A DNA stretch of 64,000 nt from an uncultured Armatimonadetes bacterium (GTDB lineage: Bacteria > Armatimonadota > UBA5829 > DTJY01). The translations under genes were made by a program, and so were the position numbers. The notes below the pieces were generated by a model. That model was not told the DNA's origin. It was given only the letters and a program-made list of their open reading frames with translations, and searched no databases. Positions within the stretch are counted from its first letter, which is position 1. Each line of letters starts with the position of its first letter. The stretch spans positions 5,219,248-5,283,247 of the forward strand of contig OY970325.1 in NCBI GenBank assembly GCA_963717145.1. The letters are read 5' to 3'. Below are positions 2,531-63,773 of this stretch, one piece after another.

Positions 2531-2810
2531 CAGCCAAGATGTCCCCCTTACGAAGGGGGACCGGCCTCTGGGCCGAGGGGGTTTCCGCGTGTGGGTGCGC
2601 ATACAAACCTCCCCCGGCCTGCTGGCCGGCCCCTCCTTCGTAAGGAGGGGCGCAGACGGCTTCCGGGCCGAGGGGGTTGCCGCGCGCGGGTCCACGAAAC
2701 GGAACCGCCAAGACGCCAAGGACGCCAAGCGAACCTCCCCCGGCCTGCTGGCCGGCCCCTCCTTCGTAAGGAGGGGCGCAGACGGCCTGCTGGCCGAGGA
2801 GGTTTCAACA
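2531..2810. repeat. Cluster of three REP-like hairpin elements (family A: GGCCGGCCCCTCCTTCGTAAGGAGGGGC plus GAAACCTCCCCCGGCCTGCTGGCC)
   Basis: Near-identical copies at 2609-2680 and 2734-2810, plus a variant at 2531-2592. The same element occurs in inverted orientation at 7258-7309 and 7715-7770. Confidence 0.8.
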
Positions 2811-4960
2811 TGCGACAGATCGACTACAAGACATATCTCGACAAAGTGTACGGATGCTGGATCGGCAAGTGCGTCGCCGGCACGATCGGCGCTCCCTATG
2901 AAGGCGCGAAGGAGCTGTTCGACTTCGAGTACGACCCGAAGCTGATCGAGAAGATGCTCCCGAACGACGACCTCGACCTCCAGGTGCTCTGGCTGTCCGT
3001 CTTGGAAGAGAAAGGGATCGCCTTCACCTCCGACGACCTCGCCGATGCGTTCCTCAACAGGTGCAAGTACGCGCCCGGGGAGTACGCCTTCTTCAAGAAG
3101 AACTATGCCAGAGGCATCCATCCGCCGCTGAGTGGCGCGTACAACAACCGCTACTACATCGAGGGAATGGGCTGCCCGATCCGCTCCGAGGTATGGGCCT
3201 GCATCGCTCCCGGCAACCCGCAACTCGCCGCCGAACTCGCGGCGAAGGACGGGGTGCTCGATCACGCGGGGAACTCGGTCTACGCCGAGCAGTTCCTCGC
3301 CGCACTCGAGGCCGCCGCGTTCTTCGAGAGCGACATCGGGAAGCTCGTCGAGATCGGACTCAGTGTGATCCCCGAGGACTCGAAGATCGCCGGCCTGATC
3401 CGCGACGTCCGCGACTGGTGCCAGCTTGTGGGAGACGACTCGGGAGCGACTGTAGGGGCGTGCCTTGTGCCGCCTGTGACCGTCGACCAGGCGGCACAAG
3501 GCACGCCCCTACAGTCGCCTGTGACCGTCGACCAGGCGGCACAAGGCACGCCCCTACAGTCGCCTGCCGTAAGTGAGGACACCGGCGCTCCGGACTGGCG
3601 GTATGTCCGAAGCCAAATCCTGCGGAAGTACGGCCATCCGGACTGCACGAACATGTACCAGAACATGGGGATCACGCTCCTGGCGCTCTTCCTGGGAAGG
3701 GACTTCCTCGACACGACCATGATGGCGCTCAACTGCGGGTTCGACACCGACTGCACCTGCGCGACCGCCGGCTCGGTGCTCGGCATCATCCAGGGCGCGG
3801 AGTACCTGAGCACGACGCACGAGTTCCCCGAGCAGCGCTTCAAGCTCGGAGTCGATGCGCCTCGCCGATCCGACCGCGTCCTCGATCTGGCCGAGGATAC
3901 GTGCCTGATGGGCCTCCATTTCGCCGAGTACTTGAACAGGGATGTGGCGATCATTGACGCGCCGAAGCCGCCTCAAATCGAGCGGCCGGAGTACGAAACG
4001 GTCAAGGTCTCGATCGATTACCAGGGAGTCCCGGCGATGGGCATCGGTGAGACGCGAAAGATCAAGATTCTGTTTGACAACGAGCGCGTCAGCCCAGTCG
4101 GGATAGCGGTCTCCCTGACCGTCCCTGATGGCTGGGACGTATCCCCGACCTCCGCCGATCTGCTTCTCGATCCCGGCGTCAACTCCTGGGAGATCGAGGT
4201 GACCGTTCCGGCGGATATTCCGGTGCTGGATGAGCGGAACATGTTCGAGTTGGGATTCGATTCTTCCGCCGAGAGACCGGAAACCCCTCCCCAGCCCTCC
4301 CCGCAACGGAGAGGGAATCGCACTCTCTGCCCCCTCTCCGTTGCGGGGAGGGCTGGGGAGGGGTTTCCGGCTCGCTACCCATTCGGCATCGTCGGGGCGT
4401 CGGTGTGGGAAGTCTTCGGTCCATTCTGGCAGAACATCGGGCTCATCTCAGAGGGTACCAAGGACGAGATGGCGGATGTCGGCCGGATATACCACCTCAA
4501 CACGCGCGTCGATCCCGACCGGGAGTACATGACGCTCGACGAGATTCTCGGGCCGAAGATCACCGGCGACGCGGCGAAGGAAGGGCAGGTCGTCTGCTTC
4601 GGCGAGGACCTGATGTCGATGTCGGACGCGGTCGGATTCCAGGGGCCGTGCGCGGTGTATATGGTGCGGCGGATGATCTCGCCGGAGGACCGAACGCTCG
4701 GGGTGCTCGTCGGCCATACGGACGCGTACAAGCTGTGGATCAATGGGGAACTGATCAGCCGGCGGGACGACGTCGATTGGTGGACCGCCGAGAACGCGCA
4801 CATCCACGGGGTGAAGATCAACAAGGGCGAGAACATGATCGTCCTGCAGATGATCCGGCGCAGTTCCGAGGCGAAACTGAGCATCCTCTTCGTGAAGCGC
4901 GGCTCATGCTCCGAGCACTACTACGACTTCGCGTCGGTGAACCCGCGGCTCAGGGAGTAA
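2810..4960 (+). CDS. ADP-ribosylglycohydrolase family protein with a C-terminal beta-rich extension. Carries in-frame palindromic insertions.
   Basis: N-terminal GCWIGKCVAGTIGAPYEG and later GFDTDCTCATAGSVLG match the two conserved ADP-ribosylglycohydrolase metal-binding motifs. The caller ORF began at 2591 inside REP repeats. RBS-spaced ATG at 2810 (MRQIDYK). Confidence 0.6.
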   Translation: MRQIDYKTYLDKVYGCWIGKCVAGTIGAPYEGAKELFDFEYDPKLIEKMLPNDDLDLQVLWLSVLEEKGIAFTSDDLADAFLNRCKYAPGEYAFFKKNYARGIHPPLSGAYNNRYYIEGMGCPIRSEVWACIAPGNPQLAAELAAKDGVLDHAGNSVYAEQFLAALEAAAFFESDIGKLVEIGLSVIPEDSKIAGLIRDVRDWCQLVGDDSGATVGACLVPPVTVDQAAQGTPLQSPVTVDQAAQGTPLQSPAVSEDTGAPDWRYVRSQILRKYGHPDCTNMYQNMGITLLALFLGRDFLDTTMMALNCGFDTDCTCATAGSVLGIIQGAEYLSTTHEFPEQRFKLGVDAPRRSDRVLDLAEDTCLMGLHFAEYLNRDVAIIDAPKPPQIERPEYETVKVSIDYQGVPAMGIGETRKIKILFDNERVSPVGIAVSLTVPDGWDVSPTSADLLLDPGVNSWEIEVTVPADIPVLDERNMFELGFDSSAERPETPPQPSPQRRGNRTLCPLSVAGRAGEGFPARYPFGIVGASVWEVFGPFWQNIGLISEGTKDEMADVGRIYHLNTRVDPDREYMTLDEILGPKITGDAAKEGQVVCFGEDLMSMSDAVGFQGPCAVYMVRRMISPEDRTLGVLVGHTDAYKLWINGELISRRDDVDWWTAENAHIHGVKINKGENMIVLQMIRRSSEAKLSILFVKRGSCSEHYYDFASVNPRLRE
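3452..3557. repeat. Two tandem copies of the family B palindromic element (GTAGGGGCGTGCCTTGTGCCGCC ... GGCGGCACAAGGCACGCCCCTAC) inserted in frame in the CDS
   Basis: A 51-bp unit is duplicated in tandem. The frame is preserved and it translates to the repeated peptide PVTVDQAAQGTPLQS. Confidence 0.85.
4277..4370. repeat. About 94-bp perfect-arm palindrome (CCGGAAACCCCTCCCCAGCCCTCCCCGCAACGGAGAGGG ... CCCTCTCCGTTGCGGGGAGGGCTGGGGAGGGGTTTCCGG) inside the same CDS, in frame
   Basis: Inverted repeat read directly from the sequence. ORF 2591-4960 stays open across it. Confidence 0.8.
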
Positions 4961-5054
4961 GGGAGTGTGGGAGTATGGGAGTGTGGGGTATGGGAGTGTG
5001 GGAGTGTGGGAGTCCGGATCGCCCATACTCCCACACTCCCATACTCCCATACTC
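4961..5054. repeat. Hairpin built from GGGAGT/GGGAGTATG hexamer repeats, immediately after the stop codon at 4958-4960
   Basis: GGGAGTGTGGGAGTATGGGAGTGTGGG ... CCCATACTCCCACACTCCCATACTCCCATACTC. Related copy at 6184-6268. Confidence 0.8.
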
Positions 5055-5059
5055 TGCTA

Positions 5060-5959
5060 CTACTCCTCGTCGCCTCTGCCAAAGATGCGGGTCAGGAGGC
5101 CTGGCTTCCGGGGACTCTCGACCTCCGCCGGCTCATCGTCCGGCCAGTGGAGATCGTTCGCGGCTGCATTCAGTCGGCGGAAGAGATCGTCCGCGGATTC
5201 ATCCTGCTCGGTCTTATCCATGGAGTCGGCCTCAGATTGCGGCTTCACAATTGTTACCTGGGCGATCTCGGGTTCAGCCTCAGAGGCGGAGCGCGTCTCT
5301 TCGACCACCTCGGCCTCAACAGCGACCACCTCCTCACCTCGGGCTGACCGGGTCTCCGTGGGTCGAACGTCCCCCAGTGACTCCATGACAGGGGCGGGAG
5401 CGTCCACCGTCTGGGCGGAAGTGGTCTGTGCACTCGGCATCTCGACCGGCTCGGCTTCGACGTGCATCTCGGGCTTCGGCGACTCGACCTGCGGCGGAGA
5501 GGTCACGGGCGTCGTGACCGCGGAGACCTCTTTGGTCGGATCAGCCATTACCGGCCCGCTCGTCGTCCGGAAAATCTCGTCCTGCATCTCGCCGGCAAGC
5601 TCGTGTGTCCGGTGAAAGAGGTCGTTCACCCTGGACATGGTCTCTTCCCACTCGGGAGTGCCGCCGTCTTCGTTCTCCTTGGGGGCAGGCAGCTCCTTCA
5701 CCAGATGCGTGAACTCGGCGGAGAGCGCCAGGTTTGTGTCCTGCATCTGGTGGAGCACCGAACTGGCGCGATGGAGCATATAGTTCAACTCGCGCTGGCG
5801 TTGAAGTAGTTCGGAGGCGATGTGGTTCATCGAGGTCTCGCGAGTGCGGAAGTCCTCGACCTGCTGCTGGAGAAGCTTGCTCCGTTCGGCCAGAACAGCC
5901 TTGTGCTTGAGCGCTCTGAGCAGCTTGTCCTTCATGTTCTCGCTGAAATCTGGTGACAC
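5060..5959 (-). CDS. Hypothetical protein with a coiled-coil N-terminal half and an acidic, low-complexity C-terminal half
   Basis: 299-aa ORF with a coiled-coil-like N-terminus and no obvious stops in the surrounding GC-rich frame. No recognisable catalytic motif. Confidence 0.4.
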   Translation of the reverse strand: MSPDFSENMKDKLLRALKHKAVLAERSKLLQQQVEDFRTRETSMNHIASELLQRQRELNYMLHRASSVLHQMQDTNLALSAEFTHLVKELPAPKENEDGGTPEWEETMSRVNDLFHRTHELAGEMQDEIFRTTSGPVMADPTKEVSAVTTPVTSPPQVESPKPEMHVEAEPVEMPSAQTTSAQTVDAPAPVMESLGDVRPTETRSARGEEVVAVEAEVVEETRSASEAEPEIAQVTIVKPQSEADSMDKTEQDESADDLFRRLNAAANDLHWPDDEPAEVESPRKPGLLTRIFGRGDEE

Positions 5960-6183
5960 GAATCATCCCTCGCTTGGTTCCCTGACGACTCCCGTCGTCG
6001 GGGATACTGGTACTTATACCAGGATTATCGGCGGTTTCGACGGCTTTTCTGAGGCGGCACTGCCAGTTCAAGTTTATCACCATTCTCGGAGGATGTAAAC
6101 AAATGATGCCCGCCGACCCCTCATTCATCTCTACGCGTCACTCGGCCCAGGGGTTCCGGGTGAAGGAATCCGTCGTCCTGGAG

Positions 6184-6268
6184 GAGTATGGGAGTGTGGG
6201 AGAATGGGAGAATGGGAGTGTGGGAGTCCGGAACGCCCATACCCCCATTCTCCCACACCCCCATTCTC
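6184..6268. repeat. Second copy of the GGGAGT-type hexamer-repeat hairpin, just upstream of the RBS of the sugar-binding protein gene
   Basis: GGAGTATGGGAGTGTGGGAGAATGGGAGAATGGGAGTGTGGGAGTCCGGAACGCCCATACCCCCATTCTCCCACACCCCCATTCTC. Confidence 0.8.
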
Positions 6269-10930: not shown

Positions 10931-12886
10931 ATGGTACGATTTGCCAGTCTTGTGGCCCGTGAGGGAAAGATATTGAAGACGACTGTTCTGCTGTCGGGCA
11001 ATGAGGCGATCGCCCGAGGCGCATATGAGGCCGGTGTTCGGGTCGCCGCGGGTTACCCCGGCACCCCGAGCACCGAGATACTTGAGAACATCACCCAGTA
11101 CGAGACGATCTACGCCGAGTGGTCGCCGAATGAGAAGGTTGCCCTCGAGGTCGCTCTCGGCGCTGCTCTCGGAGGCGCTCGGGCGCTCTGCACCATGAAG
11201 CACGTCGGCGTCAACGTCGCGTCCGACCCGCTGATGACCGCCTCGTACACCGGCATCAACCGTGGACTCGTGCTGGTGAGCGCCGACGACCCCGGCATGC
11301 ACAGCTCCCAGAACGAACAGGACAACCGTCACTACGCCCGGTTCGCCAAGATCCCGATGCTCGAACCGGCCGACAGCCAGGAGTGCAGGGACTTCACCAT
11401 CCGCGCCTTCGAGATCAGCGAAGCGTATGATACCCCGGTGCTGCTCCGAACGACCACCCGCGTGAACCACGGGAAATCGACCGTCAGCCTCTCTGAGCCG
11501 CAGGAGCCGGTCTTCGGCAGGTTTGAGTGCAACCTTCAGAAATACGTGATGATCCCCGCATACGCGATGAAGCGCCATGTGATCGTGGAGGAGCGGATGA
11601 TCCGCCTGAGGGAGTTGTCCAACGCCTCCGGTGTCGCCATTGCCCGTAGTGGCCGTGCCTCTGTGCCGGCCTCCGAGATCACTGGCCGGCACAGAGGCAC
11701 GGCCACTACGGGCAATGGCGACCTGCACCGCATCGAATGGGTCGACACGTCGATCGGCGTGATCACCTCGGGGATCGCATACCAGTACGTCAGGGAGGTG
11801 CTCCCGGAGGCGTCGGTACTGAAGCTCGGGATGACCTATCCGCTGCCCGACCGCCTGATCCGCGAGTTCGCGTCGAAGGTCGAGAAGCTGTACGTCGTCG
11901 AGGAACTCGATCCGTTCCTGGAGGATCAGATCAAGGCGCTCGGAATCGAGGTCATCGGCAAGGAGCGCTTCCCGATCATCGGCGAGCTGAACCCGAGGCT
12001 CGTCGCCGCTGGATTCGACTTGGGTAGGGGCGTGCCTTGTGCCGCCTGTGACGAGGTACCGGGCGGAGATGGACAGGCCACGGGCGGCACAAGGCACGCC
12101 CCTACAACCCAGCGGTTGGAGGGTGATATCCCCGGGCGGCCGCCGGTCCTCTGCCCGGGATGCCCTCACCGCGGGTTCTACCAGGTTCTGAAGAAGATGA
12201 AGGCCATCGTGACCGGCGACATCGGATGCTATACGCTCGGAGTGCTTCCGCCGCTCGAGGTAATGGACACCTGCATCTGCATGGGCGCATCGATCGGGAC
12301 CGCGCTCGGCATGAAGCGCGCTCAGTCGCCCGACGACAAGCGCCCGGTCGTGGCGGTGATCGGCGACTCAACTTTCGTCCACTCCGGGATCACCGGCCTG
12401 ATCGATGCCGTCTACAACGGCACGGCCGCGACGATATGCATCCTCGACAACTCCACGACCGCGATGACCGGCGGGCAGGAGCATCCGGCGTCGGGGAAGA
12501 CGCTCATGGGCAGTCCGGCGCCGAAGCTCGATCTGGCGGCCCTCGCACGTGCGATCGGTGTCGAGGACGTGCTGGTGGTCGATCCATACGATCTGGAGGC
12601 AGTCGAGAAGGCGCTCAGGTATGCGACCCGGACGGATAAGCCTTCGGTGATCATTACGAACAGGCCGTGCGTGCTGAGAGACAGGTCGGAGAAGCCGCCG
12701 AAGTCCTCCATCGCGCTGGAAATGTGTACCGGCTGCCAGGTGTGCTTCCGGATCGGATGCCCGGCGATGGAGTCGGTGGCGGTCGACGACAAGTTGCGCG
12801 CGCGGATCAACGCCAACCTGTGTCAGAGCTGTGGTGTCTGCATCCAGGTATGCCGCTTCGAGGCCATTGGGAGGCCGGAGGAATGA
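10931..12886 (+). CDS. iorA: Indolepyruvate:ferredoxin oxidoreductase alpha subunit, carrying two in-frame palindromic-element insertions
   Basis: N-terminal VLLSGNEAIARGAYEAGV and GYPGTPSTEI thiamine-pyrophosphate-enzyme motifs. C-terminal 4Fe-4S motifs CTGCQVCFRIGCP and CQSCGVCIQVC. 651 aa. Confidence 0.85.
   Translation: MVRFASLVAREGKILKTTVLLSGNEAIARGAYEAGVRVAAGYPGTPSTEILENITQYETIYAEWSPNEKVALEVALGAALGGARALCTMKHVGVNVASDPLMTASYTGINRGLVLVSADDPGMHSSQNEQDNRHYARFAKIPMLEPADSQECRDFTIRAFEISEAYDTPVLLRTTTRVNHGKSTVSLSEPQEPVFGRFECNLQKYVMIPAYAMKRHVIVEERMIRLRELSNASGVAIARSGRASVPASEITGRHRGTATTGNGDLHRIEWVDTSIGVITSGIAYQYVREVLPEASVLKLGMTYPLPDRLIREFASKVEKLYVVEELDPFLEDQIKALGIEVIGKERFPIIGELNPRLVAAGFDLGRGVPCAACDEVPGGDGQATGGTRHAPTTQRLEGDIPGRPPVLCPGCPHRGFYQVLKKMKAIVTGDIGCYTLGVLPPLEVMDTCICMGASIGTALGMKRAQSPDDKRPVVAVIGDSTFVHSGITGLIDAVYNGTAATICILDNSTTAMTGGQEHPASGKTLMGSPAPKLDLAALARAIGVEDVLVVDPYDLEAVEKALRYATRTDKPSVIITNRPCVLRDRSEKPPKSSIALEMCTGCQVCFRIGCPAMESVAVDDKLRARINANLCQSCGVCIQVCRFEAIGRPEE
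11636..11719. repeat. Family C palindromic element (GTAGTGGCCGTGCCTCTGTGCCGGCC ... GGCCGGCACAGAGGCACGGCCACTAC) inserted in frame within iorA
   Basis: Perfect inverted repeat. The frame is maintained and it translates to IARSGRASVPASEITGRHRGTATTGNG. Related copies at 24166-24230, 24326-24350 (half) and 50770-50800 (half). Confidence 0.85.
12024..12105. repeat. Family B palindromic element inserted in frame within iorA
   Basis: GTAGGGGCGTGCCTTGTGCCGCC ... GGCGGCACAAGGCACGCCCCTAC, translating to GRGVPCAACDEVPGGDGQATGGTRHAPT. Same family as 3452-3557, 25661-25721 and 54097-54155. Confidence 0.85.
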
Positions 12887-18804: not shown

Positions 18805-18912
18805 TCCCCGGAAATCTCCCGCGATGGATGCTGAATCAAGTTCAGCATGACGCGTCGCGCTACCGTCATGCTGAACTTGATTCAGCATCCATCGGGGGGA
18901 GGTTCCGGGGCG
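18805..18912. repeat. About 100-bp palindrome between the binding-protein gene and the first permease gene
   Basis: GGATGCTGAATCAAGTTCAGCATGACGCGTCGCGCTACCGTCATGCTGAACTTGATTCAGCATCC, with extending flanks CCCCGGAAATCTCCC and GGGAGGTTCCGGGG. Confidence 0.75.
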
Positions 18913-24153: not shown

Positions 24154-24165
24154 CAGATGGCTCAT

Positions 24166-24230
24166 GTAGTGGCCGCGCCTCCGTGCCGGCCACTGAGGTG
24201 GTAAGGCCGGCACAGAGGCACGGCCACTAC
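24166..24230. repeat. Family C REP hairpin downstream of paaK2
   Basis: GTAGTGGCCGCGCCTCCGTGCCGGCCACTGAGGTGGTAAGGCCGGCACAGAGGCACGGCCACTAC. Confidence 0.8.
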
Positions 24231-24401
24231 ATGCTATTTCACATCCATTTTGCTCGAGGAGGTGATCTTACTGCACCTGAGCTTGGTTTCTATCTGATAA
24301 GGCGAAACAAGGACAGCCTTATCAGGTAGTGGCCGGTGAATGCCGGCATAGTACGAGCGGATTTCGGTCCGCGATTCGAAAATACAGAGGAGGTAAGGAA
24401 A

Positions 24402-25556: not shown

Positions 25557-25660
25557 GAATCCGAGGGAATGGAGTGGTGGAGTGTCGGGATAACGGGCAC
25601 CTCACCACACGATAGGCGCGAGGGCCGGGGGCATCTGCTCCCGGCCCTTATGCTGACAAT

Positions 25661-25721
25661 GTAGGGGCGTGCCTTGTGCCGCCCGTTGCCGCGTGTCGGG
25701 CGGCACAAGGCACGCCCCTAC
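25661..25721. repeat. Family B REP hairpin in the intergenic region
   Basis: GTAGGGGCGTGCCTTGTGCCGCCCGTTGCCGCGTGTCGGGCGGCACAAGGCACGCCCCTAC. Confidence 0.8.
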
Positions 25722-25792
25722 ATCGTGATTGGCGGTAGGACTTCCGACGCCCGAGGGCGAAGAATACCCCAGAGGCATCCGCGAAGATCACC

Positions 25793-32230: not shown

Positions 32231-32971
32231 ATGAACAGCGGTTATCCCTACTCAGCGCCAATCGGGAGGATCACAGCGGGTATTGAGCTGGGCACACTCG
32301 CTAACAAGATTATCGATTTCGTTCGCCAGCAGCTGCCAGCATGGAGGGACCACCCCGACCGTGATGATGTCCAGTCGGAGTTCCGCCTAACCTCCCAACT
32401 CTGTGTATTCCTCAATGCCAGGGCGCGCCAGGCTCGCTTCTCTATGATCCAGTTCCATCACGAGCTACCGCAGCCCCGGAGTCGAAGCGTCGATCTATCA
32501 GTACATCCGTTGGATCCCCTGCAGATCGATGCCCGACTCTTCTCAGTATTTCACCCAGTTCTGGTGTTAGAGTGCAAGCGACTTCCCCCTCCAGATCCAA
32601 AACGCGAGAGGGAGTATGTGACAGGCGATGCGAACAAGCGGAGCGGCGGCATACAACGTTTCAAATTGGGTTTGCATGGTTCTGACACCGATGTCGCGGG
32701 TATGATTGGATTTCTCCAGGAGGCCACCGCTCCACATTGGCATAGCACAATCAACGGATGGATTCTTGAGCTATGCAACGGCACTCCGGCCGATGGATGT
32801 ACTTGGAGCAGTGACGAGGTTCTATCGGAGATCGATTGCAGTGTTTCCGGTGGCGTTACCAGCTACTGCTCAGTTCACTCGAGGACTTCCTCAAGATCAG
32901 GCCAGCCTATCACCATCCATCATGTGTGGGTTGCGATGAACCAGCTACAGGGTGCTTGTAGAACGAGTTGA
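32231..32971 (+). CDS. PD-(D/E)xK-like nuclease-fold protein, translationally coupled to the methyltransferase gene
   Basis: Stop TAG at 32226-32228 and ATG at 32231. Possible nuclease motif SVDLSVHP ... PVLVLECKRL (D ... E-x-K). Confidence 0.45.
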   Translation: MNSGYPYSAPIGRITAGIELGTLANKIIDFVRQQLPAWRDHPDRDDVQSEFRLTSQLCVFLNARARQARFSMIQFHHELPQPRSRSVDLSVHPLDPLQIDARLFSVFHPVLVLECKRLPPPDPKREREYVTGDANKRSGGIQRFKLGLHGSDTDVAGMIGFLQEATAPHWHSTINGWILELCNGTPADGCTWSSDEVLSEIDCSVSGGVTSYCSVHSRTSSRSGQPITIHHVWVAMNQLQGACRTS

Positions 32972-33130
32972 TGCCGGTAAGTGGGGTGGTTGGTGGGGCT
33001 ATCTCAGGGAAAGATGTGACCAAATCGTTCTACAGGGGTTCTGTAGAACGATTTGACGCCGGTAAGTGGGGTATTTGGTGGAGGTAACTCACGGAAAGAC
33101 GCCGCCAACGCGGTCTACAGACAGTCTGTA
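32955..33130. repeat. Boundary repeat block at the right end of the low-GC island: direct repeats of TGTAGAACGAnTTGAnGCCGGTAAGTGGGGT plus two hairpins
   Basis: Copies begin at about 32958 and 33041. Hairpins CAAATCGTTCTACAG/CTGTAGAACGATTTG and CGCCGCCAACgcgGTCTACAG/CTGTAGACggaGTTGGCGGCG. Confidence 0.7.
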
Positions 33131-33342
33131 GACGGAGTTGGCGGCGTTTTCATGCCGATTGGGAATCACTGCTGGGGAGTTTGCGCCGTCCGGTAGCCGA
33201 GGGAACCCTGCTGAGAGCCGAGTGGCAGGCCATAATATCTAATAGGTAACGAGTAATGAGTAAGCAGGAGGAACGCGCGCTCATCTTTCGCCGGTCATTA
33301 CTTGTTACCCATTACCCATTGCGCCTTACCGGGAGGATACCC

Positions 33343-34002: not shown

Positions 34003-34250
34003 TGCGGAATGCGGATTGCGGAATGGGGCGGGGACGATGGGGTCCCCGCCCATCCTGCATTCTTGTCTGAGCCGGACGAAAGACACCGGCATACTCAGGG
34101 CTGACGGGGTGGGGGAGCGAACACCTGTGCCCAACATGCTCCTTCGAAAGAAACTCCCTACTGGGTGGGCGGGCGGGTACAAACTCCGGGAACGGCGACC
34201 GCATCCGGAGTTTGTACCCGCCCGCCCACCCAGTAGGGAGTTTCTTTTAC
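34003..34250. repeat. Post-stop hairpin built from CGGAAT-type repeats (34003-34062), followed by a long palindrome with about 45-bp arms (34147-34250)
   Basis: TAATGCGGAATGCGGATTGCGGAATGGGGCGGGGACGATGGGGTCCCCGCCCATCC. Then GAAAGAAACTCCCTACTGGGTGGGCGGGCGGGTACAAACTCCGG ... CCGGAGTTTGTACCCGCCCGCCCACCCAGTAGGGAGTTTCTTT. Confidence 0.8.
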
Positions 34251-36239: not shown

Positions 36240-38305
36240 TTATGTCTTGGTCTCCAATTTGGCCGGGCTTTCGCCGGACCGAATACGGGCGTACTCGATC
36301 AACCCGGCGAAGGGGTTCGCGTCCTTGTAGCCCCCGACGAGCGAGCCGTGGTCCACTCCGACCTGCAGACCCTCGACCGGCTTCACCGGGAGCCGGCCGA
36401 TGTCGTTCGAGGCGACGAGCTTCCTGTCCACCCACAACTGCGCGCCCTTCGACGTGAGATTGGCGTTGATGCGGGACCATCCCTCGCCGATCGGATACTT
36501 CGCCGCGACCTCGGTCAGCGCCCCGTCGATGCGGATCGCGAGCGTGGGGATTCTATCCCTAAGGTAGAGCGCGTACCCGTGGCTCTCTCCTCCCTGGGCG
36601 AGGATGACGCCATCCGACTCGGGCTTCACCATTGCCTCCACGTTCCAGTCGATCGCGCCGGGATCGAGGCTCTTGGAGGGTGGGACATCGACGAAATCGC
36701 CTTTCGCGAGCTTCAAGACCTTCTTGCCGCCGTCTTCCACGAACGTCCCGCCGTGGAGCGTGCCATGGTTCCCCTGGCCGGAGAGATCATCAGCGTTCCC
36801 CTTGCTGAAGTCGAAACTCAGCACCGGGCCGATCACCCGCTCGACCTTCTCACCGACGACCGGCGGCGCTCCGAGTTGGACTCCCTCGGGGTAGCCGGTC
36901 GCCTTTTTGAGCCGTGCAAGTTCCTTCCGCATCTCCTTGAGCCTGACCGCATGAGCCGGATCCTGCGCGAGGTTGTGCATCTCGATGGGATCGGCCTTCA
37001 GGTCGTACAGCTCGTCGATGTCGTTCATGTCCGGATAGGTGCAGTACTTCCATCGATCCGTGCGGACGCCGAGCATGAGGGGAAGGCCCGCCGCCCAAGA
37101 CTCGCGGAAGTATTCGTACAGGAACGACTCGTGGCCCGGCTTGCCCTTCAGGACGGGGACCATCGAGCGCCCCTGCATGCCCTCGGGGATCTTCACGCCC
37201 GCGAGTTCGAGCACGGTCGGCGCAAGGTCGATGTTCAACACAGTGCCGTCCACCTTGCTGCCTGCCTTGACGAGCTTCGGGTAGCGCACGAGCATCGGGA
37301 TGCGGATCGATTCCTCATACATCAGCCGCTTGTCGCCGAGTCCGTGCTCGCCGACGAAGTATCCGTTGTCGCCCGCGAAGACGATGATCGTGTTGTCGAG
37401 CTTCCCGGCCTTCTCCAGCGTATCGAGCACGCGCCCGATGCTCTCGTCGATCCCGAGGATCGTGCGGTAGTAGTCCATCATACCCTTGCCGTTCCAGTCA
37501 CCGCGCTTTATCTCGTCGGGGATCGGCTGGCCCTCGCTCGCGGCCCACTGGTTGCGCTGCATACCATGGGTGAACGCGCGTCTCATCCACTTCGGCTTGT
37601 CGGCGAACGTGTCCTTGAAGCTCGCGGGCTCGGGGATGGAGTCGTCGGCGAATGCATCCCTGTGCCGGGGCGCGGGGTGAAGGGCCCGTGCACCGCCTTG
37701 TGGGAGAGCACCATGCAGAACGGCTGGGTCCGATCCTTCCTCAGCCACCTGAGGGCGTAGTCGGTCAGGATGTCGCTCATGTACCCCTTGGCCCTGAACT
37801 CGCGACCGTTCTCGTTCAGCTTCGGGTCCTCATAGACTCCCTGCCCGAGGAAGCTGAGCCAGTAGTCGAATCCCGGGCGAGGATTCGACGTCGGGGCCTG
37901 ATGCCACTTCCCCACGAACGCGGTATCGTAGCCAGCATCCTGGAGAAGCTTGGGGAACGTGGGACATGAGGGATCGGGATCGAAGCCCTCGTTGGTGACG
38001 ACGCCGTGCTTGTGGGCATAGGTCCCGGTCAGGAAGCACGCTCGGCTCGGGGAGCAGAGCGCGATCGTGACGAACGCATTCCGGACGTGCGCTCCCTCGC
38101 GGGCGATGCGGTCGAGGTTCGGCGTCTTGAACCACGACGGGTGACCCATGAACCCCATTGCGTCATGGCGCTGGTCGTCGGTCAGGATGAAGAGGATGTT
38201 CGGCCGCTCGCCTGCATCGGCCTCATCCATGGAGAGCCCGGCGGCGAGTACCCCGGCTGTTGCCATCCCCCGACTCAGGAATTCACGTCGTGTGATTGTG
38301 GTCAT
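36240..38305 (-). CDS. Arylsulfatase (formylglycine-dependent sulfatase) with a TAT signal, split by a frameshift in a C-run near 37690
   Basis: TRREFLSRGMATAGVLAAG twin-arginine signal. CSPSRACFLTG sulfatase signature. The junction ...HKAVHGPFTP / (A)PRHRDAFADDSIPEP is restored by adding one C. Paralog of the gene at 38318. Confidence 0.7.
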
Positions 38306-50462: not shown

Positions 50463-50638
50463 CTACTCATACTCATACTCATACTCATACTCATACTCAA
50501 TCCGGGGCGAAGCATTGGCGATTCTGTCCCGAAGTCGGCGCAGTCCGAAGGGCCAATGCTTCGCCCCTACATCCTGGGCGGAGAACTGGCGATTCTGTCC
50601 CGAAGTCGGTACAGTCCGATTGGCCGATGTTTCGCCCC
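50463..50638. repeat. (ATACTC)6 microsatellite followed by two tandem copies of an about 65-bp palindrome
   Basis: CCGGGGCGAAGCATTGGCGATTCTGTCCCGAAGTCGGCGCAGTCCGAAGGGCCAATGCTTCGCCCCTAC, then a variant copy. Confidence 0.8.
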
Positions 50639-50890
50639 TACACCCGGAGATGTCTGGTCTAGCGCAGCTTTCTTCTGCGGCAACTACGGTATATATACCG
50701 TGCTGTACTTGCCGCATAGTGCGGTAAGTCGCGCACTCCCCCAGGACGTGCCGTTGCCGCCGTCCCGCCGGATGGCCGGCACGGAGGCACGGCCACTACG
50801 GTTTTCGTCGCACCGGCCTGCTTGTCCTGCGAGGCAGGGAAACGGATGGTTTACAATCCCGGGCGCTTTCCACTATCATTGTCCCACGCA

Positions 50891-54087: not shown

Positions 54088-54096
54088 CCATGGGCT

Positions 54097-54155
54097 GTAG
54101 GGGCGCGCCTTGTGCCGCCCGAGATAGGGCTGCGGGCGGCACAAGGCGCGCCCCT
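54097..54155. repeat. Family B REP hairpin (GCGC variant)
   Basis: GTAGGGGCGCGCCTTGTGCCGCCCGAGATAGGGCTGCGGGCGGCACAAGGCGCGCCCCTAC. Confidence 0.8.
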
Positions 54156-54184
54156 ACAGCCTAAGTGTCTAAGAGGAACTCATC

Positions 54185-63651: not shown

Positions 63652-63773
63652 AGTAAACAGGCCTCCCAACCATGGTAAACAGGCCTCCCAACCATGGTAA
63701 ACAGGCCTCCCAACCGTGGTAAACAGGCCTCCCAACCGTGGTAAACAGGCTTTCCGACCATGGTGAACAGAGG
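63652..63773. repeat. Tandem array of about 5.5 copies of a 22-bp unit (GGTAAACAGGCCTCCCAACCAT)
   Basis: Direct tandem repeats with no unique spacers. Confidence 0.85.

Follow-up and report, generated by a model that had tools for sequence, protein, structure and literature searches.

The 64-kb window analysed here (64,000 nt of contig OY970325.1 from an uncultured Armatimonadetes bacterium; positions below are those of the window) contains a gene of the ADP-ribosylglycohydrolase (ARH) family which carries two long hairpin-forming inserts, both read in frame, and a gene for an IorA-like oxidoreductase subunit which carries two more. Insert 1 of the ARH gene is built from two inverted units of a GTAG-tagged repetitive extragenic palindromic (REP) sequence, designated family B, and insert 2, a REP-like dimer, belongs to a separate family which is unclassified. 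The coordinates of these and other features are collected in Table 1.

Table 1. Genes, inserts and structured repeats located in the 64-kb window.
Feature	Position	Strand	Remarks
ARH-family gene, 716 aa	2810-4960	+	intact; host of both inserts
Site-1 expansion, total	3428-3586	+	53 extra residues (207-259), 159 nt net; length census and codon alignment
Family-B hairpin (insert 1)	3446-3518		perfect 73-nt palindrome; inverted-repeat search, single-stranded DNA (ssDNA)/RNA folding
Tandem duplication, 45 bp, 2.13 copies	3471-3566	+	Tandem Repeats Finder (TRF), period 45, 100% matches
Second copy of family-B right arm	3533-3563		inverted repeat; alternative partner of the sole left arm
Site-2 net insertion, 34 codons (102 nt)	4274-4375	+	encodes residues 489-522; codon alignment
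Insert-2 palindrome, 94 nt	4277-4370		arms 4277-4315/4332-4370, 39 nt, 100% complementary, 16-nt spacer
Indolepyruvate:ferredoxin oxidoreductase alpha-subunit gene (IorA-like), 651 aa	10931-12886	+	two in-frame REP dimers
Sister-family (GTAGTGGCCGTGCCTCTGTGCCGGCC) head-to-head (HH) dimer	11633-11722		in IorA; perfect 90-nt palindrome; -96.8 kcal/mol
Family-B HH dimer, 28-nt spacer	12024-12105		variable linker of IorA; other open frame (GRGVPCAAC...)
Family-B HH dimer	25656-25726		intergenic; 11-nt spacer of unrelated sequence
Family-B HH dimer	54093-54161		intergenic; compensated substitutions in both arms, 11-nt unrelated spacer
Sister-family HH dimer	24163-24233		intergenic
Sister-family single unit	near 50799		intergenic
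Composite repeat units upstream of ARH gene	2606-2678, 2732-2804		95% identical
Composite repeat units upstream of ARH gene	2562-2596, 2657-2691, 2783-2817		
Imperfect palindrome, 105 nt	18806-18910		
Tandem repeat, 85 bp, 2.1 copies	32945-33140		
Perfect palindrome, 101 nt	34147-34247		43-nt arms
GTAG-tagged tandem repeat, 71 bp, 2.1 copies	50500-50647		
Tandem repeat, 22 bp, 5.4 copies	63653-63770		

The Host Gene

An earlier note on this DNA had described a single ARH-family gene with hairpin repeats read in frame, in agreement with the present analysis, in which the open reading frame (ORF) was found to run for 716 codons without a stop. An identical 716-aa protein (P0001) is annotated in NCBI/ENA as one coding sequence (CDS), and a separate annotation pipeline thus also treats this ORF as one gene. 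The Pfam model ADP_ribosyl_GH (PF03747) matched residues 15-331 (E 7e-32, 111.6 bits, cutoff 26.2), a weak NPCBM_assoc match was obtained for residues 413-470, and the domain order was an ARH domain followed by a beta-sandwich and a C-terminal beta domain. A Foldseek search with the N-terminal domain matched ARH3, DraG and MJ1187 with a TM-score of about 0.66 (normalised by target length).

Residue conservation and stretch lengths were determined in an alignment of 113 sequences including the window protein. All family-invariant residues are present in the latter; in the metal-site motifs N52, D53 and D314 are invariant, and D54, D312 and T313 nearly so. A PF03747 match above the gathering score, an ARH fold and the metal-site motifs assign the protein to the ADP-ribosylglycohydrolases. 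Its closest named relatives come from Armatimonadota metagenome-assembled genomes. Homologues (1563 at E <= 1e-10) have a typical length of about 645 aa, which the window protein exceeds, by comparison with about 110 of them, by about 70 aa, the source of the excess being the two in-frame inserts. Because these homologues are colinear single proteins of that length, the possibility of two genes parted by an intergenic repeat was excluded. Pairwise ratios of non-synonymous to synonymous substitution rates (dN/dS) of the gene were 0.17, 0.16 and 0.22 against P0002, P0003 and P0004, respectively, and the range among these three orthologues was the same. With a dN/dS of about 0.17 and every family-invariant residue retained, the gene looks functional.

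Separately from the inserts, about 13 residues following the FWQN motif, present in 111 of the 113 sequences, are missing from the window protein at residues ~542-546 (window 4430-4440), and a gap of equal size was seen in P0006.

Insert 1 and its Duplication

The stretch W203..R264 (site 1) comprises nine residues in 110 of the 113 sequences, 27 in P0003, 28 in P0004 and 62 in the window protein. The two inserts were delimited against the DNA of the closest orthologues (L005, L004 and L001), aligned by codons. The site-1 expansion was resolved into an older non-palindromic part, in part common to P0003 and P0004, the family-B dimer, and a duplication. The 3' part of the expansion (GAGGACACCGGCGCTCC) has its homologue in the shorter expansions of P0003 and P0004, which means that the loop had already been lengthened when the family-B element entered it. 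The expansions of P0003 (L004) and P0004 (L001) at this loop measure 18-19 aa. In a neighbour-joining tree the window protein stands beside P0002 (bootstrap 0.83) and P0004 beside P0005 (0.985); P0002 (L005) and P0005 have the ancestral 9-aa loop, which implies either two clean losses or recombination.

The hairpin of insert 1 consists of arms 3446-3476 and 3488-3518, 31 nt each and 100% complementary, around an 11-nt loop (spacer 3477-3487). It represents two inverted GTAG-tagged REP units with the tags outward, that is, an HH dimer of the kind seen in REPINs (REP doublets forming hairpins). The GTAG..CTAC core extends over 3452-3512, and the outer 6 nt on either side (GCGACT/AGTCGC) are specific to this copy. 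The 73-nt hairpin folded with -45.7 kcal/mol as ssDNA and -71.4 kcal/mol as RNA. In the minimum-free-energy fold of the whole insert, the left arm pairs with the distal right-arm copy at 3533-3563.

A repeat unit of 51 bp, or 17 codons, had been reported previously. TRF gave 45 bp, or 15 codons; the peptide quoted with the earlier value, PVTVDQAAQGTPLQS, has 15 aa and therefore already implied a unit of 45 bp. That this peptide is encoded twice, by the two copies of the 45-bp unit, was seen in the translation. The unit consists of the spacer and the right arm (plus 3 nt), so the tandem duplication claimed for a hairpin-containing unit holds for these parts, and the whole hairpin is not duplicated: a single left arm is followed by two right arms. 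The copies are bounded by the 6-nt microhomology CGCCTG (3471-3476, 3516-3521 and 3561-3566), which occurs at the start of both full 45-nt copies and directly after the second.

Insert 2

At site 2 the homologues have 16-26 residues and the window protein 51, and the site is empty in the closest orthologues. Compared with the empty site of P0002 and P0003, the net insertion is composed of AGA, the 94-nt palindrome and CTCGC. The 94-bp perfect palindrome described earlier as read through in frame was recovered as such, with no stop codon. Each arm is made up of a stem-loop, CCCTC(Y)CCG-NNN-CGG(R)GAGGG, and the outer tail GGGGAGGGGTTTCCGG. The features of GTAG-tagged REPs were not found in 4277-4370, which has an inner 9-bp stem-loop and a GGGGAGGGGTT tail, and neither a GTAG nor a CGTC tag. 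The inner stem-loop (CCCTCTCCG-TTG-CGGGGAGGG) with the tail GGGGAGGGGTT was found in two intergenic dimers with differing spacers in the unrelated contig L038; insert 2 therefore also belongs to a dispersed family. The window and L038 copies of the unit differ by 4 nt, mirrored in both arms. The palindrome at 18806-18910 and the repeat upstream of the ARH gene have a loose terminal resemblance to insert 2 and nothing closer.

A 64%-identical ARH homologue from another organism, P0026 (L015 10001-12055, also L016), has an in-frame 23-aa insert of its own, AGAVPCVGAGFEIPPQQEAPPQR, encoded by a nested GC-rich palindrome (GGGGCGGGATTTGAAATCCCGCCCC within CTGGGGCGG../..CCGCCCCAG). It lies after residue 338, aligned to residue 376 of the window protein and unlike either window site, and was recovered in two separate assemblies.

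Reading Frame and Protein Structure

RNA folding of inserts 1 and 2 gave -102.6 and -102.4 kcal/mol (z = -12.4 and -14.7), and no chance match was obtained for either in 100 shuffles. Both inserts translate in frame without a stop codon. The palindrome lengths of 73, 118 and 94 nt are each 1 modulo 3, and the net insertions relative to empty-site orthologues, 159 and 102 nt, are multiples of three. These GC-rich palindromes are stop-free in four to six of the six frames, so that a net length of 3n is the only real filter. The selection for frame preservation suggested in the earlier note thus reduces to survivorship, because an insert or duplication can survive in a functional ORF only if it adds 3n, and the palindromes themselves seldom bring a stop. 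Of the three REP reading frames, V-G-A-C-L-V-P-P is used in the ARH gene and G-R-G-V-P-C-A-A-C in IorA, and therefore both open frames are in use; the third contains TAG.

An AlphaFold2 model of the ARH protein, built on the 113-sequence alignment, had a mean predicted local distance difference test (pLDDT) score of 90.4 and a predicted TM-score (pTM) of 0.90. The pLDDT fell below 50 only at residues 214-255 and 498-512, which correspond to inserts 1 and 2, and the model accordingly places both in disordered loops. In the model insert 1 falls within the catalytic ARH domain, with helices 192-209 and 263-274 on its two sides; insert 2 falls where the middle beta-sandwich meets the C-terminal beta domain, between strands 477-484 and 521-529. 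Both had previously been placed between the two conserved ARH motifs and the C-terminal beta domain, a location which these positions correct. The inserted peptides consist to 59-66% of Gly, Pro, Ser, Thr, Ala and Gln.

Insertions in the IorA Gene

The claim that the ARH gene is a second case of coding-sequence colonisation in this DNA was substantiated by its companion, the IorA-like gene, whose 651-aa CDS is present in NCBI/ENA. Relative to the 90%-identical orthologue P0122, whose site is empty, the 11633-11722 insert brings in exactly 30 codons (90 nt). For the 229-aa cluster mate of IorA (P0243/L040), the contig starts just downstream of the inserts, within the variable linker, and is uninformative about them.

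Repeat Families

The REP sequence of family B is GGGCGTGCCTTGTGCCGCCC. As ssDNA, the monomer GTAGGGGCGTGCCTTGTGCCGCC(C/T) folded (-7.2 kcal/mol, z = -2.9) into a stem of 5 bp and 2 bp, separated by a 1-nt bulge, with a 5-nt loop and with GTAG left unpaired ahead of the stem, and insert 1 thus shows the short GC-rich stem-loop with an unpaired terminal GTAG that characterises GTAG REPs. This architecture recurs in the sister family, loops being 5-6 nt across the two, and a G-C to C-G pair change between them is compensated. The 64 kb examined hold four family-B dimers and, of the sister family, two dimers and one single unit; three of the dimers and the single unit are intergenic, so that the copies are multiple, dispersed and mostly intergenic, as is usual for GTAG REPs. 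Matches resembling TGTAGGGGCG at 37168 and 57868 lie inside genes and were rejected as chance occurrences.

In all HH dimers GTAG...CTAC is outermost, as expected for this arrangement, and they fold with -67 to -103 kcal/mol. In agreement with the description of REPINs, two inverted REPs and a spacer form a hairpin, and the copies make up a population of related sequences. The conserved spacer of REPINs was not observed: spacers measure 11-13 nt, or 28 nt in one copy, and are unrelated in sequence in every copy. The copies differ at few positions and the arms nevertheless stay perfectly complementary, which means that substitutions are mirrored in both arms. In nearly every dimer the perfect palindrome runs 3-13 nt past the GTAG..CTAC core into copy-specific sequence (P ~1e-14 by chance), examples being 3446-3518, 11633-11722, 24163-24233, 54093-54161 and L008. 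The 13-nt extension of the IorA insert at 11633-11722 is missing from the empty site, and a palindromic target site was for this reason rejected as its source.

Long hairpins in the window number 13, of which nine are intergenic and four coding, the latter in two genes. Since about 84% of the window is coding, this is a strong depletion (binomial P = 3e-5), which is to be expected because such elements usually harm genes.

No exact copy of the family-B 23-mer was found in a scan of a genome contig collection that did not include the source genome; the exact 23-mer was present in nine metagenome contigs of GC content 0.43-0.67, as single units or HH dimers. Viral scans for repeat copies returned one contig each. 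The 23-mer occurs singly in L006 (11753-11775 and 12663-12685; contig of L011 and L039), L007, L010 and L014. These contigs are of low GC content (0.43-0.45), one being phage-like with a terminase gene, and the single units adjoin other GTAGGGG-tagged hairpins, for example GTAGGGGCGGGATTTATCCCGCCC. The presence of the 23-mer in low-GC contigs implies that the REP sequence is common to very different organisms, and the repeat families were seen in intergenic DNA of other organisms as well as of the window. Searches against Rfam gave sub-threshold matches to generic hairpins of the microRNA-precursor type only, and no known RNA family applies.

Origin of the Inserts

The explanation we consider likely is that the inserts are palindromes of the REP or REP-dimer type which lodged in the ARH gene and are tolerated there as selfish or neutral passengers. 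It draws on features that were observed directly, namely the anatomy of the inserts, the empty sites, the membership in repeat families, and a host gene that is intact and under purifying selection. REP-type palindromes would have landed in DNA coding for surface loops or inter-domain linkers, and would have persisted for three reasons: a net length of 3n, stop-free frames, and their loop or linker positions. The extra 30-50 residues would then protrude as a disordered loop and leave the fold undisturbed. By analogy with known REP systems, spread of the elements was probably transposase-driven, and could have been effected by an enzyme like the REP-associated tyrosine transposases (RAYTs) or other IS200-like HUH tyrosine transposases acting on single-stranded DNA hairpins. 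After insertion, one slippage event between two copies of the microhomology CGCCTG lying 45 nt from each other, probably aided by the hairpin, may most simply account for the 45-bp duplication. The inserts appear to be neutral, and hairpins of -70 to -100 kcal/mol in the mRNA probably entail some cost to translation or stability.

Several observations weigh against this explanation. Neither the palindromic extensions nor the unrelated spacers would be expected from simple copying of a single master element. Insert 2 bears no tag and is the sole copy in the window, where no second copy was found with up to 3 mismatches. No RAYT/Y1-transposase motif of the NPV(R/K)AG type was found in six-frame translations of the 64-kb window and the fetched loci, a negative result which is not equivalent to absence from the genome. 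As the perfect arms imply recent events, the dN/dS values are nearly silent on selection after the insertions. Translation across the hairpins is deduced from the open frame.

The extension missing from the IorA empty site and the unrelated spacers leave room for formation or symmetrisation in situ, in which a seed or a single REP would be copied in inverted orientation by fold-back, template switching or hairpin-templated repair. We regard this as a minor possibility for how the palindromes were built or perfected; it concerns the origin of the dimers and not their identity, and is compatible with lodged REP-type passengers. It would fit spacers that agree in length (11-13 nt) and are unrelated in sequence, the copy-specific perfect extensions, and the indels and substitutions mirrored in the arms, such as the 4-nt difference between insert 2 and its L038 relatives; at site 2, moreover, the insert ends on the right with CTCG, which is complementary to CGAG in the host sequence on the left. 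The IorA extension, on the other hand, came or arose with the insert, being absent from the empty site, and a core that is near-identical across loci, and even across organisms, still needs dispersal.

A bolder and somewhat more doubtful proposal is that the lineage tolerates, or directs, frequent insertion of REP dimers into coding DNA, and that the dimers may form and stay perfect in situ by a hairpin-templated process. Four intragenic hairpins were found in 64 kb here, compared with 70 listed for the whole genome of Opitutus terrae. Such a process would account for the extensions specific to each copy and for the lack of relationship between spacers; the coding copies also show extensions and mirrored arm changes, each change altering two peptide segments. 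If this were true, the elements would constitute a general engine for new surface loops and linkers in an uncultured phylum, and their mode of formation would be distinct from cut-or-copy transposition of the RAYT type.

It is quite improbable that the intragenic hairpins are kept because they are useful, for instance in ribosome pausing at domain boundaries, in setting mRNA half-life through RNase III/E sites, or as flexible linkers. The location of insert 2 at a domain boundary and of insert 1 between the halves of the catalytic domain, the extreme stability of the hairpins, the repeated expansion of site 1 within the clade (window, P0003 and P0004) and the known effect of extragenic REPs on mRNA stability (PMC3733652) would all suit such a role. 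The elements, however, occur in only one of 113 sequences, and the closest orthologue has neither; their host genes, ARH and IorA, are unrelated; the hairpins are strongly under-represented in coding DNA; disorder is predicted for the inserted peptides; and the perfect arms indicate very recent events instead of long conservation.

An artefact or decay, in the form of assembly errors, a young pseudogene or two genes, is very improbable. Perfect palindromes and perfect tandem duplications are indeed error-prone for assemblers, and P0001 is known from one contig only, but the families were met again at many loci of the window and in short-read assemblies obtained independently from other samples, and the palindromic insert of P0026 is found twice in separate assemblies. 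An error would, in addition, have to add exactly 3n nucleotides five times, and the open frame of 716 codons, the colinear homologues, the conserved invariant residues and the dN/dS of about 0.17 speak against decay.

Ribosome bypassing has precedents in the byp elements of Magnusiomyces mitochondria and in T4 gene 60. That the inserts are likewise untranslated, through excision from the mRNA or bypassing during translation, can be dismissed in spite of the very stable mRNA hairpins, since five events (four inserts and the duplication) were stop-free and frame-keeping, which would be needless if they were skipped, and neither a take-off/landing codon pair nor a conserved flanking signal was present.

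Relation to Known Elements

The intragenic REP-dimer phenomenon is already known. Di Nocera, De Gregorio and Rocco (2013, BMC Genomics 14:522, PMC3733652) described GTAG REPs and their HH dimers in eight phyla, mostly intergenic with a minority lying wholly in ORFs, and listed 70 entries for Opitutus terrae in their supplement. According to that work, intragenic dimers encode 20-30 aa, one ORF has two inserts, tandem REP-encoded peptides occur in Thauera, and intragenic REPs were argued to be neutral because of their position in flexible loops; examples include GTAG-17 to -20 of Opitutus terrae, GTAG-1 of P. putida and the Thauera clusters. Because the phenomenon was thus catalogued in 2013, the window elements represent no new category. 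They share with these REPs the unpaired GTAG on a short GC-rich stem-loop, the HH dimer folding into one long hairpin, and peptides that start with VGA..., from GTA-GGG-GCG. They differ in the REP sequence GGGCGTGCCTTGTGCCGCCC and in the uncultured Armatimonadota-related host lineage, in the bulged stem (5+2 bp), in perfect arms with copy-specific palindromic extensions, in spacers that are short (11-13 nt) and unrelated whereas HH spacers are conserved as a rule of thumb (PMC3733652), and in the presence of a second, untagged family in the same gene.

REPINs resemble the window elements in being dispersed multi-copy families of a genome in which arm complementarity is maintained. They are mobilised by RAYTs, are almost exclusively extragenic and usually have conserved spacers (Bertels and Rainey 2011, PMC3116915; PMC3337134), whereas here the spacers vary, four of 13 hairpins are intragenic and no RAYT was found in 64 kb. 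In the REPIN-RAYT system the cognate RAYT, a Y1 HUH transposase (PF01797), is single-copy and typically flanked by REPs.

Rickettsia palindromic elements (RPEs; Ogata et al. 2000, Science 290:347; 2002, Genome Res 12:808, PMC186582; summary in PMC10969869) are the classical analogue: palindromic repeats that lie in frame in unrelated housekeeping or metabolic genes and are translated as additional peptide segments. RPE peptides were judged compatible with the protein fold and the elements interpreted as selfish DNA. RPEs are AT-rich, about 100-150 bp long, restricted to Rickettsia and encode a conserved peptide. The elements in the window are GC-rich, 60-95 bp long, used in two reading frames and without sequence relationship; neither the sequence of RPE-1 to RPE-10 nor the conserved peptide was found in them, and the resemblance is one of behaviour only.

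Bacterial MITEs (miniature transposable elements with inverted repeats) such as Correia, ERIC, BOX and Nezha can create in-frame fusions (Delihas 2011, PMC3184786; PMC10969869). They too are small, non-autonomous inverted-repeat elements that are at times located in ORFs and read through, but consist of terminal inverted repeats derived from insertion sequences, which flank a core, with a target-site duplication, while here the whole element is the hairpin. No target-site duplication was found flanking the 90-nt insert in IorA or the 102-nt insert in the ARH gene in the two empty-site comparisons, which separates them from MITEs.

New in the present case are the REP sequence family, the host lineage and the occurrence of two families in a single gene, with good empty-site and structural controls. 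It offers a well-controlled instance of a conserved enzyme that short selfish palindromes have made longer but have not broken. Two unrelated families and a later in-frame duplication in one gene provide a stepwise view of protein loop growth. In annotation, genes of this type can readily be mistaken for pseudogenes or fusions, and REP peptides (VGA..., ...GTPLQ) pollute protein databases.

Other Repeats near the ARH Gene

The region directly upstream of the ARH gene (2540-2817) holds a composite hairpin repeat in three copies, with the inner hairpin GCCCCTCCTTCGTAAGGAGGGGC and termini (AACCYCCCCCGG / CCGAGGGGGTT) similar to the ends of insert 2. The last copy contains the Shine-Dalgarno sequence GAGGAGGT and extends into ATG 2810, and the repeat therefore supplies the translation start signals of the ARH gene.

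Inverted arrays of the 8-mer GGGAGTGT / CCCATACT make a long hairpin at 4953-5061, between convergent genes, which starts in the last codons and stop (4958-4960) of the ARH gene. The 8-mer arrays were seen again at 6184-6268, in the 5' leader of a gene for a periplasmic-binding lipoprotein, given that its real start is ATG 6287 and not the longest-ORF start at 6103. Structured repeats between genes are unusually abundant in this genome, as illustrated by the last rows of Table 1.

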